Positions 1 through 7,888 are shown, numbered from the stretch's first letter. The stretch: 64,000 nt of DNA from Rhodothermales bacterium (GCA_965209015.1 OZ242367.1:673649-737648); one strand, 5' to 3'. Numbers and translations are program-made. The notes: generated by a model from the letters alone, not told the origin.

Positions 1-39
1 TTAGCTTTTGAATTTCCAAATTGGTGCCGCACAACAAGT
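1..39 (-). pseudogene. Truncated duplicate of the Fur-family regulator gene, abutting the left end of the IS array and continuing off the window edge
   Basis: nt 1-39 are base-for-base identical to nt 6031-6069 inside the fur-like CDS. Identity stops exactly where the IS terminal inverted repeat CCTGACTTCGACAGG begins at nt 40. Confidence 0.7.
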
Positions 40-878
40 CCTGACTTCGACAGGTAGGAGTTGGCGGAGGGTTAAATAGTCATTTTCGAGTAATTTTGGA
101 GCTTTTTTTGGGTATTTGGGGCCATTTCAGTCTTGATTCTCGAGTTTTCAATATATAGTGTTCCGTTTGTTTTAGGATTTGAATATTTGAACTGTGTACC
201 ATATCCTACCTGTATCATGTTCGTCCGCAAACTCAAACAAAAGATGACCCAAAACATTGCCGTCCAGATCGTGCGCAATGACCGCACAAAAGATGGCAAG
301 GTGTGGCAGAGGAGCGTGCGCCATATGGGCACGGCCGCCGAGGTAGAGGCATTAGATGCCCTCCTGCATATCGCAGAACAGAAACGATTGCAGAAGAGGT
401 GACACCTTCCTTGTTTCCGTTGTTTCAATGGACTGAGCGTTGCATGCGCGCACACATTGCCACTTGCTTTGCCGCCTTTGCGATGTTGCGTAGACTCTGG
501 AATACGCGGCATGGCCAGAGGGTGCCCATCAGTGAGGGGCAGATTTTGGCTCAGTTGCGTGAGGTTGAAGTGTCTGTGGTACGAGACAAGACGCTCCAGC
601 GTCATTTTGCGATCCCGTCGGCGGTCAACAGTACAAAAGTTCGCCTTTACAAAGCGATGGGGTTAACGATTCAGTGCCAGACCGTACCCTTGGAGAAAGC
701 CCTGTAACCCGACTCCCAAGTGATTGCTTAACGTCTGGTATTCAGACCGCAAAAAGCGGCAAAACCGACGGTGTTTGTAGTGTTCAAACTTGTCTGAACA
801 TTCTTTGCAAAAGATTTGTACCCCCTGAAAAATAAGACTTTCCTTGTTTTCATAGAATTGCAAACCGTTGAAGTCAGG
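40..878 (+). mobile_element. Non-autonomous IS1634-family (IS4 superfamily) derivative, copy 1, with an internally deleted transposase
   Basis: Terminal inverted repeats are CCTGACTTCGACAGG (40-54) and CCGTTGAAGTCAGG (865-878). The remnant ORF starts at 217 (MFVRKLKQK.TQNIAVQIVRNDRTKDGKVWQRSV..., typical of an IS1634-type N-terminus). It is fused to a transposase C-terminal region (ERCMRAHIATCFAAFAML...VRLYKAMGL, ending at 707). The DDE catalytic core between them is absent. Confidence 0.6.
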
Positions 879-907
879 AATAAAAAAATGATAGATTTTG
901 CGTAGAT
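879..907 (+). repeat. ~30-nt direct repeat at an IS/module junction (right of IS copy 1)
   Basis: AATAAAAAAATGATAGATTTTGCGTAGAT matches the repeats at 2357-2385, 3232-3261 and 4687-4715, apart from a few mismatches. Confidence 0.75.
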
Positions 908-998
908 CGGGGGATGCTTTTCGCATATATTCTACGTTTCGTCTCCATCTATGGGAGTCGTTTCGTCTATACCTTTAAGGGAGTTGATTGGAAGGGGA

Positions 999-2198
999 TC
1001 ACCTTCCAAACCCTGCGTCGCAGTCACGATCTATACGGCTTTTCTGCGGCTCGGGTGGGATCTTGATATTTTCTCGGGTATAGGTCTCCTTTAACCATGC
1101 GTGCATAGATGGAATGGGGACGACAAAACCCATTCCGCGTTCCTCCAGTATTCCCTTCTCTACAAAGCGTCGAAACAGATCTTTCGCCTCACTGTCCCCA
1201 TATTTATTTGCCAATGCAGACATTATTTCGATACGTGGAGCAGGCTGTTCTGACTGCTGATCTGGGATGGAGTTTGCTAAACACTGTATCTGATCAGCAA
1301 AAAAATCAACGACTCGTTGTTTGTAATATACTTTGCGAGCTTTGTGCCCAGCTTCCAATACAGAGTTTAATCCGTCCGGTGTCATAGCACCACCATTTGC
1401 TTTCAGATACTCCGAAGCAAGGTCTGCGTAGCATTGGATATGTTGGGGCCATCCATGCGTTTCCTTTGCGATTGCATCAAGCCATGCTGACGAATCCCCT
1501 TGTCCGCTCCCCTCCTTTTTGATCCAGTCCTGAATCACCAAACGCTCAGACTCTTTGCTTAACGCCCCCAACTCTACAACACAATTCCGTCCAAACCTCG
1601 AAATCCCCAGTTTGCCAAAGGACGCAATTGTTGTCCCCAATCCCGCTGCCAAAAGGATCGCCGGTTTCCTCAATTTGCCATTATGGATTCTTTCCAATAG
1701 ACTTATTACCTCAGGCTCTATTGGTTTACCAACAAAAACATCAATTCCTTGAGCTTCATCAAGAATCAGAACCACGCCAGAATCCAAAATTAAACTTTTC
1801 AGTACCTGAATCACGCTTGAGTCCCCCGAAACTTCTTTTGCGCGATCAAAGGAGATCACCTTCGCGTCTAGATTTGTGGTCGTTTGTTTCTGAGTAACAT
1901 AGGTCTCCCCAAAGGTCTGGGCCAGATGGGCAGGGTTGTATAAATCCTGCACATTAATGTAAACGACTTCCCACTGACGATCCAGGGCCTCTTTCTCCAT
2001 TTGATAGAGTAAAGCCGTCTTTCCCACACCAGGCGCACCTTGGATCAGAAAGGTGGTTCCCGTATTGGTGTCTTTTGATCGCTTTAATAACTCTGCAAAA
2101 TCTCTTCTGATAGCTTTTCGCCCGTGAAAATATGGAGAGGGTCCACGATCGCGTGCAGCAGTTAGATGGCCAGAGGTCGAAAGTTCTGATCGTGACAT
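999..2198 (-). CDS. P-loop ATPase (AAA_16/AAA_22/Orc1-Cdc6-like) with a C-terminal winged-helix-like region, paralog A
   Basis: 399-aa ORF with Walker A GAPGVGKT and Walker B VLILDEAQ. The N-terminal pattern F-HGRK...L before the P-loop is typical of AAA_16/STAND-like ATPases. The exact family is not resolved. Confidence 0.8.
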   Translation of the reverse strand: MSRSELSTSGHLTAARDRGPSPYFHGRKAIRRDFAELLKRSKDTNTGTTFLIQGAPGVGKTALLYQMEKEALDRQWEVVYINVQDLYNPAHLAQTFGETYVTQKQTTTNLDAKVISFDRAKEVSGDSSVIQVLKSLILDSGVVLILDEAQGIDVFVGKPIEPEVISLLERIHNGKLRKPAILLAAGLGTTIASFGKLGISRFGRNCVVELGALSKESERLVIQDWIKKEGSGQGDSSAWLDAIAKETHGWPQHIQCYADLASEYLKANGGAMTPDGLNSVLEAGHKARKVYYKQRVVDFFADQIQCLANSIPDQQSEQPAPRIEIMSALANKYGDSEAKDLFRRFVEKGILEERGMGFVVPIPSMHAWLKETYTRENIKIPPEPQKSRIDRDCDAGFGR

Positions 2199-2356
2199 GT
2201 TTTAGAATGGGGACTCTTAGTTAGACATATCCATAGATGGATTGGTTCCGGTATCTGTCTGGGAATGACCCTGCTTAGACTCCTTTAATTTTGTCTACGG
2301 CATACGCACTCAGATTATGATCGGAGGTCATAAACACGCACGGATTCGATGCCCAG

Positions 2357-2385
2357 AATGAAAAATTGATAGATTTTGAGTGGAT
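2357..2385 (+). repeat. ~30-nt direct repeat at a module/IS junction (left of IS copy 2)
   Basis: AATGAAAAATTGATAGATTTTGAGTGGAT lies immediately before the IS left inverted repeat at 2386. Confidence 0.75.
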
Positions 2386-3231
2386 CCTGACTTCGACAGG
2401 TAGGTACTGACTTGGAGGGCAAAATAGTCATTTTCGAGTGATTTTGGGGCTTTTTTTGGTATTTGGGGCCATTTCAGCCTTGATTCTCAAGTTTTCAATA
2501 TATAGTGTTCCGTTTGTTTTGAGATTTGAATATTTGAACTGTGTACCATATCCTACCTGTATCATGTTCGTCCGCAAACTCAAACAAAAGACGACCCAAA
2601 ACATTGCCGTCCAGATCGTGCGCAATGACCGCACAAAAGATGGCAAGGTGTGGCAGAGGAGCGTGCGCCATATGGCACGGCCGCCGAGGTAGAGGCATTG
2701 GATGCCCTCCTGCATATCGCAGAACAGAAACGATTGCAGATTGAAGAAGAGGTGACACCTTCCTTGTTTCCGTTGTTTCACTGGACTGAGCGTTGCATGC
2801 GCGCACACATTGCCACTTGCTTTGCCGCCTTTGCGATGTTGCGTGGACTCTAGAATACGCGGCATGGCCAGAGGGTGCCCATCAGTGAGGGGCAGATTTT
2901 GGCTCAGTTGCGTGAGGTTGAAGTGTCTGTGGTACGAGACAAGACGCTCCAGCATCATTTTGCGATCCCGTCGGCGGTCAACAGTACAAAAGTTCGCCTT
3001 TACAAAGCGATGGGGTTAACGATTCAGTGCCAGACCGTACCCTTGGAGAAAGCCCCGTTACCCGCCTCCCAAGTGATTGCTTAACGTCTGGTATTCAGAC
3101 CGCAAAAAGCGGCAAAACCGACGGTGTTTGTAGTGTTCAAACTTGTCTGAACACTCTTTGCAAAAGACTTGTATCCTCTGAAAAATAAGACTTTCCTTGT
3201 TTTCATAGAATTGCAAACCGTTGAAGTCAGG
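2386..3231 (+). mobile_element. Non-autonomous IS1634-family derivative, copy 2
   Basis: Same inverted repeats and same internal deletion as copy 1. The transposase remnant spans about 2564-3084 and is broken by a 1-nt frameshift relative to copy 1. It is near-identical to copy 3 (the track ORFs 2438..2692 and 4768..5022 encode identical peptides). Confidence 0.6.
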
Positions 3232-3261
3232 AATGAAAAAATTGATAGATTTTGCGTAGAT
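3232..3261 (+). repeat. ~30-nt direct repeat at an IS/module junction (right of IS copy 2)
   Basis: AATGAAAAAATTGATAGATTTTGCGTAGAT. Confidence 0.75.
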
Positions 3262-3328
3262 CGGGGGATGCTTTTCGCATATATTCTACGTTTCGTCTAT
3301 ACCTTTAAGGGAATTGATTAGAAGGGAA

Positions 3329-4528
3329 TCACCTTCCAAACCCTGCGTCGCGGTCACGATCTATACGGCTTTTCTGCGTCGCGGGTGGGATCTCGATATT
3401 TTCTCGGGTATAGGTCTCCTTTAACCATGCGTGCATGGATGGGATGGGGACAATATATCCCATAGTGATCTTTTCCAGAATCCCTTTTTCTTCAAACCTA
3501 TTAAAGAGTTCTTCTGCCCGATCGTCTCCAAACTTTTGAGCCATCAAAGAGACGATATCCTCATCATCCATGGGGATCCCCGGCTGCACATCTGCGATTG
3601 CTTTCGCAAGGCATTGGATCTCCGATGGCTTGAAATCGTTAACTCGTTGTTTATAATATACTTTGCGAGCTTTATGTCCAGCTTCCAATACAGAGTTTAA
3701 CCCGTCTGGTGTCATAGCACCACCATTTGCTTTCAGATACTCCGAAGCAAGATCTGCGTAGCATTGGATATGTTGGGGCCATCCATGCGTTTCCTTTGCG
3801 ATTGCATCAAGCCATGCTGACGAATCCCCTTGTCCGCTCCCCTCCTTTTTGATCCAGTCCTGAATCACTAAACGCTCGGACTCTTTGCTTAACGTCCCCA
3901 ACTCTACAACACAATTCCGTCCAAACCTCGAAATCCCCAGTTTGCCAAAGGACGCAATTGTTGTTCCCAATCCCGCTGCCAAAAGGATCGCCGGTTTCCT
4001 CAATTTGCCATTATGGATTATTTCCAATAGACTTATTACCTCAGGCTCTACTGGTTTACCAACAAAAACATCAATTCCTTGAGCTTCATCAAGAATCAGA
4101 ACCACGCCAGAATCTAAAACTAAACTTTTCAATACCTGAATCACGCTTGAGTCCCCCGAAACTTCTTTTGCGCGATCAAAGGAGATCACCTTCGCGTCTA
4201 GACTTGTGGTCGTTTGTTTCCGAGTAACATAGGCCTCCCCGAAGGTCTGGGCCAGATGGGCAGGGTTGTACAAGTCTTGCACGTTGATGTAAACGACCTC
4301 CCACTGATGATCCAGAGCCTCTTTCTCCATTTGATAGAGTAAGGCCGTCTTACCCGCACCAGGCGCACCTTGGATTAGAAAGGTGGTTCCTGTATTGGTG
4401 TCTTTTGATCGCTTTAATAACTCTGCAAAATCTCTTCTGATGGCTTTTCGCCCGTGAAAATACGGAGAAGGTCCACGATCGCGTGCAGCAGTTAGATGGC
4501 CAGAGGTCGAAAGTTCTGATCGTGACAT
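3329..4528 (-). CDS. P-loop ATPase with a C-terminal winged-helix-like region, paralog B
   Basis: 399-aa ORF with Walker A GAPGAGKT and Walker B VLILDEAQ. It differs from paralog A at 9 of the first ~295 residues. Residues ~296-360 are only ~48% identical (31 of 64 by hand alignment). Confidence 0.8.
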   Translation of the reverse strand: MSRSELSTSGHLTAARDRGPSPYFHGRKAIRRDFAELLKRSKDTNTGTTFLIQGAPGAGKTALLYQMEKEALDHQWEVVYINVQDLYNPAHLAQTFGEAYVTRKQTTTSLDAKVISFDRAKEVSGDSSVIQVLKSLVLDSGVVLILDEAQGIDVFVGKPVEPEVISLLEIIHNGKLRKPAILLAAGLGTTIASFGKLGISRFGRNCVVELGTLSKESERLVIQDWIKKEGSGQGDSSAWLDAIAKETHGWPQHIQCYADLASEYLKANGGAMTPDGLNSVLEAGHKARKVYYKQRVNDFKPSEIQCLAKAIADVQPGIPMDDEDIVSLMAQKFGDDRAEELFNRFEEKGILEKITMGYIVPIPSMHAWLKETYTRENIEIPPATQKSRIDRDRDAGFGR

Positions 4529-4686
4529 GTTTTAGGATGGCGACTTTTAGTTAGACATATCCATAGATGGATTGGTTCCGATATCTATCTGGGAATGACC
4601 CTGCTTAGACTCCTCTAATTTTGTCTACGGCATACGTACTCAGATTATGATCGGAGGTCATAAACACGCACAGATTCGATGCCCAG

Positions 4687-4715
4687 AATCAAAAATTGAT
4701 AGATTTTGAGTGGAT
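4687..4715 (+). repeat. ~30-nt direct repeat at a module/IS junction (left of IS copy 3)
   Basis: AATCAAAAATTGATAGATTTTGAGTGGAT lies immediately before the IS left inverted repeat at 4716. Confidence 0.75.
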
Positions 4716-5561
4716 CCTGACTTTGACAGGTAGGTGCTGACTTGGAGGGCAAAATAGTCATTTTCGAGTGATTTTGGGGCTTTTTTTGGTATTTGGGGCC
4801 ATTTCAGCCTTGATTCTCAAGTTTTCAATATATAGTGTTCCGTTTGTTTTGAGATTTGAATATTTGAACTGTGTACCATATCCTACCTGTATCATGTTCG
4901 TCCGCAAACTCAAACAAAAGACGACCCAAAACATTGCCGTCCAGATCGTGCGCAATGACCGCACAAAAGATGGCAAGGTGTGGCAGAGGAGCGTGCGCCA
5001 TATGGCACGGCCGCCGAGGTAGAGGCATTGGATGCCCTCCTGCATATCGCAGAACAGAAACGATTGCAGATTGAAGAAGAGGTGACACCTTCCTTGTTTC
5101 CGTTGTTTCACTGGACTGAGCGTTGCATGCGCGCACACATTGCCACTTGCTTTGCCGCCTTTGCGATGTTGCGTGGACTCTAGAATACGCGGCATGGCCA
5201 GAGGGTGCCCATCAGTGAGGGGCAGATTTTGGCTCAGTTGCGTGAGGTTGAAGTGTCTGTGGTACGAGACAAGACGTCCCAGCGTCATTTTGCGATCCCG
5301 TCGGCGGTCAACAGTATAAAAGTTCGCCTTTACAAAGCGATGGGGTTAACGATTCAGTGCCAGACCGTACCCTTGGAGAAAGCCCCGTTACCCGCCTCCC
5401 AAGTGATTGCTTAACGTCTGGTATTCAGACCGCAAAAAGCGGCAAAACCGACGGTGTTTGTAGTGTTCAAACTTGTCTGAACACTCTTTGCAAAAGACCT
5501 GTACCCCATGAAAAACAAGACTTTCCTTGTTTTCATAGAATTACAAACCGTCGAAGTCAGG
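4716..5561 (+). mobile_element. Non-autonomous IS1634-family derivative, copy 3 (right end of the array)
   Basis: Same structure as copy 2. The right inverted repeat CCGTCGAAGTCAGG ends at 5561. The sequence after it (AATACTTCCGTAGC...) is unique and lacks the 30-nt repeat. Confidence 0.6.
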
Positions 5562-5807
5562 AATACTTCCGTAGCATTCCAAAAATATACCGACTGATCT
5601 GGTAGACGGGCAACGTTAGAGGGTAGCATGAAGAGACCTCTGTAAGCCCAGGTCTTAATCATTGTGATTCCATTCCTCAAAATACCCTCCGGTTGAGGGA
5701 GTGGCGACTGAGGTATACTTCCCATGGGAGGACGTATCTGGAATATAGACAAGAGGACGGGGCTCATGGGACCTTATTCTCCCACAATCCATAGGCGAGG
5801 AGGCCCT

Positions 5808-6395
5808 TTATGTGGTGGCCTCGGTTTGTATACCTGTCGAACGGTTGGCACAGTCATCGCGGCGACAATGGCCATAAAGGTTTAGAGCGTGGCGTCTAAT
5901 CTCAAACGAATAGACATCCGCAACCATTTCTTGGATATTCTGAATGCGTGGATCACAAAATTCAAGCACCTGTTGGCAGTCCAGACAAATCAGATGGTCA
6001 TGCTGTCCAAAGAGGAAGGATGGTTCGTATTTAGCTTTTGAATTTCCAAATTGGTGCCGCACAACAAGTTCGCACTCCAAAAGTAAACTAAGCGTATTGT
6101 AGACCGTCGCGCGGCTGATTGAGTGATTCTGCTGACGCAAAAGAAGGTGCAAGGTATCGGCATCAATATGACCAACTACATCATACACAGCGTCAAGCAC
6201 GATAAATCGTTCTTTTGTTTCGCGAAGACCACGCTGCTTCAGGAATGCCTGGAAGCGATCCTGAACCTCTTTTCTTTGGGTAGGAGAAAGTTTGGCCAAT
6301 TTTCTATTGTCTGAATAAGGAAGCCAACACAGGGAACTCGTTCGTGTTCCAAAAAAAGACGATATGGCTACAAACGAGCTTCCTGATCCCTGCAA
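5808..6395 (-). CDS. fur: Fur-family transcriptional regulator (Fur/Zur/PerR type)
   Basis: The winged-helix region (ISRATVYNTLSLLLECELV) and the metal-site pattern HDHLICLDC...C...HCRRDDC are present. The annotated N-terminus may be over-extended. Confidence 0.85.
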   Translation of the reverse strand: MQGSGSSFVAISSFFGTRTSSLCWLPYSDNRKLAKLSPTQRKEVQDRFQAFLKQRGLRETKERFIVLDAVYDVVGHIDADTLHLLLRQQNHSISRATVYNTLSLLLECELVVRHQFGNSKAKYEPSFLFGQHDHLICLDCQQVLEFCDPRIQNIQEMVADVYSFEIRRHALNLYGHCRRDDCANRSTGIQTEATT

Positions 6396-6469
6396 GAAGT
6401 CCAGATTTTGAAGTTCCGAAGATATTGACGTAAATTCAGGAAATCTTAAGAGCCCATGTGGCCAGTTGA

Positions 6470-7888
6470 ATGAGTATATATGATTTTAGCTATGGGGAAG
6501 AAGATCAATTTGAACGGCGGGATATTGACGCACTGGTCCATGCTTTTGAATTTCGGAGTCCTGGGACGTACTTTGATGTGGAATCACTTGAAGAGATTGC
6601 ACTATATTACTATAAGTCCGGTCGTCTGGAGGAGTCGCTCAGTGTCGTAGATATCATCCTAGAACGTCAACCATTCAGTGCCTATATATGGCTCAGGCGT
6701 GGGATTCTACTGGCAAATTTGGGGCGTCATCAAGAAGCATGGCGTTCATATGAAAAATCGCTGAGCCTCAATCCTTCGGATTGCGAGACTCTCGTGAACC
6801 TCGGGATCACGCTTGACACGCTGGGGCATCATGATGAAGCACGCGAACACTTTCATCAGGCTATCCGCGTGGACCCACTCAGTGGGGATGCCTATTTCTA
6901 CATTGGATGTGTACTGATGCGGGAAGATAAGATGAATGAAGCGATTGAGGCGTTTCAGAGGTGTAGCGAACTAAACCCAAACCATTCGGATGTCTGGTTC
7001 GAGTTAGGGTATTGTTATGATCGGCTGGGTGACTACCAGTTGTGTCTGGAAGCATATGATTGCCAGATTGATCTGGAGCCATACTCATGCGAGGCATGGT
7101 TTAATAAGGCAGTCGTATTGGGCAGGATAGACCGGATTGAAGATGCACTACACTGCTATGATTTAACGTTGGATATAGATCCTGACTTCATTCCTGCCTA
7201 TTATAATCGCGGGAATATTCTATCAATCCTGGAGCGCTATGATGAGGCGATTGACTGTTATCGTGAGGTACTTATACGCGAAGGGGAGGGTGCTCCTACC
7301 TATTGTAACATGGCCCTTGTCCTGTTGGACAGGGGGGATCCCGAAGGGAGCCTCTCTTTTTATGAGAAGGCCGCCAAGCTAGATTCTGACATGCCCGAGG
7401 TATGGAGTGGATTGGGACAGGCCTATATGGCACTGGAACGATTTAGACTGGCCGCACGAGCACATAGACGAGCGACCGAACTCTCTCCAGATAATCCGAA
7501 CTATTGGTACAATAGGGGAGCAGCCGAAATGTGTGCAGGCTATACGCGGAAAGCCCTGGATACATTTAAGAAATTGACAGAGCTAGATCCAGATAACTAT
7601 AAGGTATGGATTGAGTATGCCTCTGCTCTCTCCGTGAATAAAGATTCCGAAGGAGCCTGCAAGGCCTATGAATACATACTCAAATTGAAACCAGATTGCG
7701 CATCAGCATGGTATCATTATTCTGCCGTTCTCTTTTTGCTTGGAAGGGTTGAAGATTGTGTAGATGCACTCTCAATGTCGTTCGCACTGGACCCAGAGAA
7801 CAAGGAATTATTCAGGAAACACTGTCCACCCGAAATTTATAATCACCCACTCTTTCGTAAGTGTGTAGAATTAAGTGAATCGCCTTGA
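6470..7888 (+). CDS. Tetratricopeptide-repeat (TPR) protein
   Basis: 472-aa ORF with many TPR-like units of the form W..lG..y..lg....A...y..al.l.P. Confidence 0.8.
   Translation: MSIYDFSYGEEDQFERRDIDALVHAFEFRSPGTYFDVESLEEIALYYYKSGRLEESLSVVDIILERQPFSAYIWLRRGILLANLGRHQEAWRSYEKSLSLNPSDCETLVNLGITLDTLGHHDEAREHFHQAIRVDPLSGDAYFYIGCVLMREDKMNEAIEAFQRCSELNPNHSDVWFELGYCYDRLGDYQLCLEAYDCQIDLEPYSCEAWFNKAVVLGRIDRIEDALHCYDLTLDIDPDFIPAYYNRGNILSILERYDEAIDCYREVLIREGEGAPTYCNMALVLLDRGDPEGSLSFYEKAAKLDSDMPEVWSGLGQAYMALERFRLAARAHRRATELSPDNPNYWYNRGAAEMCAGYTRKALDTFKKLTELDPDNYKVWIEYASALSVNKDSEGACKAYEYILKLKPDCASAWYHYSAVLFLLGRVEDCVDALSMSFALDPENKELFRKHCPPEIYNHPLFRKCVELSESP

Follow-up and report, generated by a model that had tools for sequence, protein, structure and literature searches.

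We analysed a 64-kb window (64,000 nucleotides [nt]) of a Rhodothermales-like chromosome (GCA_965209015.1 OZ242367.1:673649-737648), in which the interval between the genes fabF and fur holds a 5.5-kb block (nt 40-5561) of three defective insertion sequences (IS) of the IS1634 family and two ATPase genes. The source chromosome is a contig of 3,214,135 bp, which also encodes the Fur protein and the ATPases of the window. A repeat of ~508 bp appears to surround the block, and we consider it likely that this repeat is a genuine long target-site duplication, a rare outcome that has been described previously for the IS1634 family. The insertion probably leaves both of its neighbours, fabF and fur, intact. 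Very long duplications in the IS1634 family were known before; what is new here is probably a further case, this time in a remote lineage and flanking a composite. As nt 1 is the leftmost base of the window, the putative left copy of the repeat enters it by only 39 nt, and the evidence has to be assembled from the two junctions of the block.

The original prediction noted that IS1634 creates long direct repeats of variable length, and the literature agrees: IS1634 and IS1549 are said to generate direct repeats of anywhere from 8 to 514 bp, with no mechanism proposed (PMC2266710). These are the only two elements of the family for which very long target duplications have been documented (PMC2266710).

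At the left junction, the first 39 nt of the window (TTAGCTTTTGAATTTCCAAATTGGTGCCGCACAACAAGT) are identical to nt 6031-6069 at 39 of 39 positions. When up to three mismatches were allowed, the 39-mer had just two matches in the 64 kb, and it had none in 100 shuffles. Both parts of the claim from which the original prediction started were thus confirmed, namely that the second copy lies inside fur and that the match ends exactly where the left inverted repeat of the IS begins. Identity breaks at nt 39/40 (a C there versus a T at 6070), and the left terminal inverted repeat CCTGACTTCGAC (terminus CCTGACTT) begins at nt 40. The junction splits codon 77 of the 163-amino-acid (aa) Fur between GA and A, so that the putative left copy would retain codons 78-163. 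For comparison we used five relatives, the closest of which (L001; OZ242302.1, 'MAG: Rhodothermales bacterium') has 79% DNA identity to the window, whereas the other four (L002-L005) have ~70%. Against the fur of L001, the 39-mer is only 87% identical. Since it is exact in the fur of its own genome and just 87% identical to the L001 orthologue, the 39-mer comes from the former, and a second fur paralogue can be ruled out as its source on the same comparison. The outer flanks (...ACAAGT and AATACT...) lack any direct repeat of 4-10 bp, which rules out an ordinary short target duplication there, and no tRNA or Rfam family that could have served as an alternative insertion target was found in nt 1-7000.

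The right end of the array reads GTCAGG at nt 5556-5561. The original prediction had this end followed by unique sequence running into fur; the end at 5561 held, and from 5562 on the sequence is single-copy within the window, but it is not anonymous. Nt 5562-5597 (AAT ACT TCC GTA GCA TTC CAA AAA TAT ACC GAC TGA) translate as NTSVAFQKYTD followed by a stop, which are the last 11 codons of fabF and its stop codon. A search with the L001 FabF found a full-length FabF (P0244; 421 aa, ending in ...GGHNTSVAFQKYTD) that is 91% identical to that of L001 and comes from the 3,214,135-bp contig that also encodes the Fur and the ATPases of the window. In a tblastn search of the window, P0244 had a sole match, residues 411-421 at nt 5562-5594, and its first 410 codons lie outside. 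The tail of fabF is therefore present twice, once in the intact gene outside the window and once as an orphan abutting the array. The coding sequence of fur itself had been given as 5808-6395, which is merely the longest open reading frame (ORF); by comparison with protein P0121 of the source contig and the L001 orthologue, it is 5808-6299.

The IS termini fit the family consensus, which fixes the array as nt 40-5561 and the putative duplication as nt 5562-6069, or 508 bp. Both predicted ends of the repeat occur twice, the first 36 nt at the protein level and the last 39 nt at the DNA level, as a 508-bp duplication predicts. Furthermore, the repeat meets both outer termini in direct orientation: the match of the 39-mer stops between nt 39 and 40, and the orphan fabF tail starts between nt 5561 and 5562. 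A conventional short duplication would have truncated one of the two genes, fabF or fur. It is conceivable that the two ends have separate histories, the 39-mer being a fur pseudogene or rearrangement scar apart from fabF, and the fabF tail having been duplicated by an unrelated event (e.g., a shorter duplication at the right junction, after which an IS inverted or translocated the left flank). IS-flanked inversions and duplications are known in IS1634-rich genomes (PMC3053259), just 39 nt of the left copy are visible, and the truncated-Fur ORF expected there is missing from the protein collection (see below). However, two partial duplications, independent of each other, would then need to coincide with the two limits of a single 508-bp interval, correctly oriented and each at an outer IS terminus, and the 39-mer would still have to be identical to the fur of its own genome while that of the nearest relative differs. 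We regard such a coincidence as very unlikely.

Several observations weigh against a 508-bp duplication and are best considered together. The original prediction had placed the duplicated target at nt 5562-6069, with a fur fragment on the left of the array and an intact fur on the right; duplication of both ends supports this in part, the fabF tail being support that the prediction did not have. Of the left copy, 469 nt lie to the left of the window, where support covers the 36-nt fabF tail, at the protein level only, and does not extend to the 433 nt between that tail and nt 1. That fabF adjoins the window is deduced from synteny, the evidence for FabF being its protein sequence from that contig. 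If the left copy were identical to the right one, it should encode truncated-Fur ORFs of 84, 53, and 39 aa and a 47-aa antisense ORF across the junction, and an exact look-up found none of these in the protein collection. Among the ORFs that the gene caller did list are one of 61 aa in IS-a, the leftmost IS, and those of six of the seven genuine window proteins tested. We take the missing truncated-Fur ORFs as a weak negative, because they would go unseen just as readily if the gene caller had passed over them or if one residue had changed in a fragment free of constraint. The only one of the seven bona fide proteins to lack an exact match (in its longest-ORF form) is a 472-aa TPR protein (window 6470-7888, + strand), the start of which agrees with its L001 orthologue; absent look-ups therefore bear limited weight. 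Finally, the duplications typical of the IS1634 family are short (5-6 bp; PMC2266710) and AT-rich, and all three IS are without a catalytic core, no full-length copy having been seen.

The missing ORF might also point to an assembly chimera, in which metagenome strains with the array in fur (6069/6070) or in fabF (5561/5562) had their junctions mis-threaded into a false duplication. The source is judged to be metagenome-assembled, by analogy with OZ242302.1, and assemblers are notoriously prone to mis-thread repeated IS copies. We nevertheless hold this to be very unlikely, because three IS of 95-99% identity are resolved within a single 3.2-Mb contig, which implies reads long enough to span the 5.5-kb array, and because an intact FabF beside the orphan tail would need a third, uninterrupted haplotype. 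In addition, each of the hypothetical strains would have had a damaged fabF or fur.

The original prediction had proposed recovering the empty site from related genomes that lack the array. A scan with a wobble-degenerate fur 38-mer returned only L001 among the genome contigs, and gave no match in metagenome contigs. In L001 the genes run DedA-TPR-fur-fabF-metK, fabF and fur pointing towards each other. All five relatives (L001-L005) have the order acpP-fabF-fur(convergent)-TPR-DedA-LVIVD-NFACT, free of IS and unbroken across both breakpoints. The empty site is deduced from this synteny, the five relatives sharing 70-79% DNA identity with the window and none of them being conspecific. As to the interval itself, an 88-aa ORF without a Pfam match is called between fabF and fur in two relatives (L002 7294-7560 and L003 7294-7560), whereas the gap in the window and in L001 is just an intergenic region of 146-210 bp.

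The three IS copies are in direct orientation, measure 839-846 bp each, and alternate with two 1.5-kb spacers (Table 1); their outer ends at nt 40 and 5561 had been placed correctly by the original prediction. About 380 central codons of the transposase, including the catalytic core, are gone from all three. On sequence grounds, the copies are best regarded as non-autonomous descendants of one deleted ancestor, and as remnants rather than functional members of the family. Autonomous members measure 1.5-2.0 kb and have an intact DDE core, a description that the present copies do not fit; refilling the deletion would yield ~2.0 kb. The C-terminal transposase fragment matches NCBIfam model NF033559 (IS1634 family) over positions 400-482 of 483 (E 3e-6), and it falls under the full-length cutoff of that model because it is a fragment. 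The nearest full-length relatives (537-571 aa) all score above the cutoff of 100 bits (six of six, 166-321 bits), and the N-terminal 72 aa can be aligned with residues 1-70 in these same proteins, at up to 47% identity. Taken together, the transposase fragments share 38-47% identity with the nearest full-length relatives found. The termini CCTGACTT match the family consensus C-----YT (PMC2266710). Only the two outer termini agree with each other at all 12 bp; every inner end other than the left one of IS-b has a substitution. No relatives of the IS were found in JGI metagenomes or plasmids, and no autonomous full-length partner was seen within the window. The closest relatives of the C-terminus (P0366-P0373, 54-81% identity) are all short, at 85-175 aa. 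Public data seem to hold this transposase lineage mostly as fragments or deleted copies.

The middle copy, IS-b, agrees with IS-c at 32 sites (alignment positions 20-785) and with IS-a at six (786-849), a mosaic that, judged from the alignment, points to exchange between the copies by recombination or gene conversion. Such a pattern is what unequal exchange would produce, and a 508-bp repeat could likewise have arisen by unequal homologous recombination between two independent insertions (5561/5562 in fabF and 6069/6070 in fur) on sister or homologous chromosomes, which would leave a tandem duplication with the array at its joint and both genes restored. Not only IS-b but the array as a whole resembles a product of unequal exchange, and a product that restored fabF and fur would be selectively favoured. 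Yet this route needs two gene-disrupting insertions in the same orientation, 508 bp apart, as well as the exchange, whereas the family has already been reported to make such repeats in one step (PMC2266710), and none of the related loci examined carries just one of the two insertions. We think this origin of the repeat unlikely.

Table 1. Coordinates of the array, its flanks, and the putative duplication in the window
Feature	Position (nt)	Strand	Basis and remarks
End of putative left target copy (last 39 nt)	1-39	fur reads -	Third base of codon 77 to codon 89; exact copy of 6031-6069
IS-a, internally deleted IS1634-family element	40-878	+	Keeps CCTGACTTCGAC repeat, N-terminal ~72 and C-terminal ~95 transposase codons; source gene caller lists ORF 217-402
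Inner direct repeat T, right of IS-a	879-907		Sequence comparison
ATPase gene 1, 399 aa	999-2198	-	P-loop AAA_16/AAA_22; winged-helix-like C-terminus
Inner direct repeat T', left of IS-b	2357-2385		Sequence comparison
IS-b, same deletion, mosaic	2386-3231	+	IS-c-like at alignment positions 20-785, IS-a-like over last ~60 bp
Inner direct repeat T, right of IS-b, 30 bp	3232-3261		Versus 2357-2385: 2 mismatches and 1 indel
ATPase gene 2, 399 aa	3329-4528	-	88% identical to gene 1; differences mostly at residues 297-359
Inner direct repeat T', left of IS-c	4687-4715		Sequence comparison
IS-c, same deletion	4716-5561	+	Right inverted repeat is perfect complement of IS-a left repeat, 12 bp
Right, complete copy of putative 508-bp duplicated target	5562-6069		IS terminus at 5561/5562; end of the 1-39 match at 6069/6070
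Orphan fabF 3' end, codons 411-421 and stop	5562-5597	+	tblastn with P0244, 11/11; aligns to end of L001 fabF
fabF-fur convergent intergenic region, within putative duplicated segment	5598-5807		Alignment with relatives
Intact fur, 163 aa, TTG start	5808-6299	-	Pfam FUR, 95 bits; identical to P0121; matches L001 orthologue

Each ATPase spacer opens and closes with an AT-rich repeat of 29-30 bp, AATGAAAAA(A)TTGATAGATTTTG[A/C]GT[G/A]GAT (T and T' in Table 1), and IS-b is therewith bounded, directly at its termini, by an imperfect direct repeat of 29-30 bp. This repeat looks like an old target duplication of ~30 bp, and for it to occur on both sides of the cargo, the unit must originally have been circular or arranged in tandem. 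Both the ~30-bp repeat around IS-b and the outer termini of the array, identical over 12 bp, are compatible with a long duplication at the outer flanks. We also considered whether the spacers themselves could be a long duplication made by IS-b, and rejected this, as their outer sides are bounded exactly by IS termini and duplication of a unit is simpler. Because the spacers differ by ~3% and in addition by a 200-bp patch at 54-60% identity, a simple recent amplification is disfavoured.

The patch (~1120-1310 and 3450-3640) lies within the ATPase genes, the products of which have 46 differences, mostly at residues 297-359, where the DNA is 54-60% identical compared with ~97% elsewhere. The AlphaFold model of the ATPase as a whole has a pLDDT of 48.7, which is too poor for a fold search; residues ~260-370 alone are confident (pLDDT 70-88), forming helices and a small hairpin that are winged-helix-like and that cover the divergent patch. 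The model suggests that the patch may reflect diversification of a DNA-binding surface or, alternatively, recombination with a third allele. The ATPase had no match by sequence in the PDB or among plasmids, and matches in PADLOC were at the level of the P-loop only. Spacer 1 also has a 24-nt insertion that is absent from spacer 2 (window 925-950, within ...tctccatctatgggagtcgtttcg...), just 3' of the ATPase stop codon. A much bolder proposal, to which we attach little credence at present, is that the 2.33-kb unit of deleted IS plus ATPase gene is a self-contained translocatable cassette, which would amplify as IS-cargo arrays, land by long staggered integration of the IS1634 type between or inside essential genes without inactivating them, and diversify a winged-helix-like, DNA-binding patch (residues 297-359) of its cargo. 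If this were true, the cassette would be an undescribed mobile and diversifying ATPase system, perhaps for defence or for plasmid or element maintenance, rather than mere IS-borne junk.

For the 508-bp repeat, we envisage that a full-length member of the family elsewhere would have supplied the transposase in trans. The points at which this enzyme linked the two outer ends of the array to the target strands would have been 508 bp apart, as against 5-6 bp normally, and filling of the long single-stranded gaps by repair synthesis would then have copied the whole interval. The left copy is predicted to run from ~468 nt to the left of the window up to nt 39, and to take in the final part of an intact fabF, the sequence between the two genes, and a defunct 3' piece of fur. 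The right copy carries the orphan fabF tail of 11 codons together with the intact fur. No gene would have been lost, because both cuts fell in the 3' parts of convergent genes and the duplication restored a full copy of each. In this scheme, the continuity of the left copy, the staggered joining, the mobilisation in trans, and the movement of the array as one unit are inferred; the array may either have come as one unit or have grown after the landing of a single IS.

Should the duplication be confirmed, the long-duplication behaviour of the family would reach into a distant bacterial lineage and would cover non-autonomous copies, and possibly a whole 5.5-kb composite. It would also mean that an insertion cutting into two convergent genes can destroy neither of them, the 508-bp duplication regenerating both 3' ends. 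For quality control of annotations and assemblies, the locus is a caution, in that such insertions leave fragments that resemble pseudogenes or mis-joins. Beyond these points, it is an ordinary mobile-element scar.

Among known systems, the closest parallels are IS1634 of Mycoplasma mycoides subsp. mycoides SC and IS1549 of Mycobacterium smegmatis, with which the elements described here share the transposase family, the C-----YT termini, and a putative direct repeat whose 508 bp fall within the 8-514 bp range. Variable length is a further likeness, given the second repeat, of ~30 bp, around the inner copy. Unlike those elements, the copies in the fabF-fur interval are 840-bp, deleted, and non-autonomous, the repeat flanks a 5.5-kb array of several IS plus cargo rather than a single IS, the host is Rhodothermales-like, and the left copy of the repeat has been seen at its two ends only. 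The array also recalls composite transposons and tandem arrays (Tn9/Tn10, IS26), in that direct IS copies bracket the cargo, the order IS-cargo-IS-cargo-IS is as expected from unequal exchange, and the outermost inverted repeats are intact. However, classic composite transposons have short target duplications, and the IS in our array cannot encode a transposase; the cargo copies differ by the 200-bp patch at 54-60% identity, and so do not stem from a simple recent amplification, and the ~30-bp repeat at both ends of the cargo segments is not explained by the classic scheme. Lastly, like trans-mobilised IS derivatives of the miniature inverted-repeat transposable element (MITE) type, the three copies have kept their terminal inverted repeats and lost the catalytic core through the same deletion in every copy, whereas, in contrast to MITEs, they exceed the typical size at 840 bp, retain recognisable coding remnants, and have no autonomous partner in the 64-kb window.

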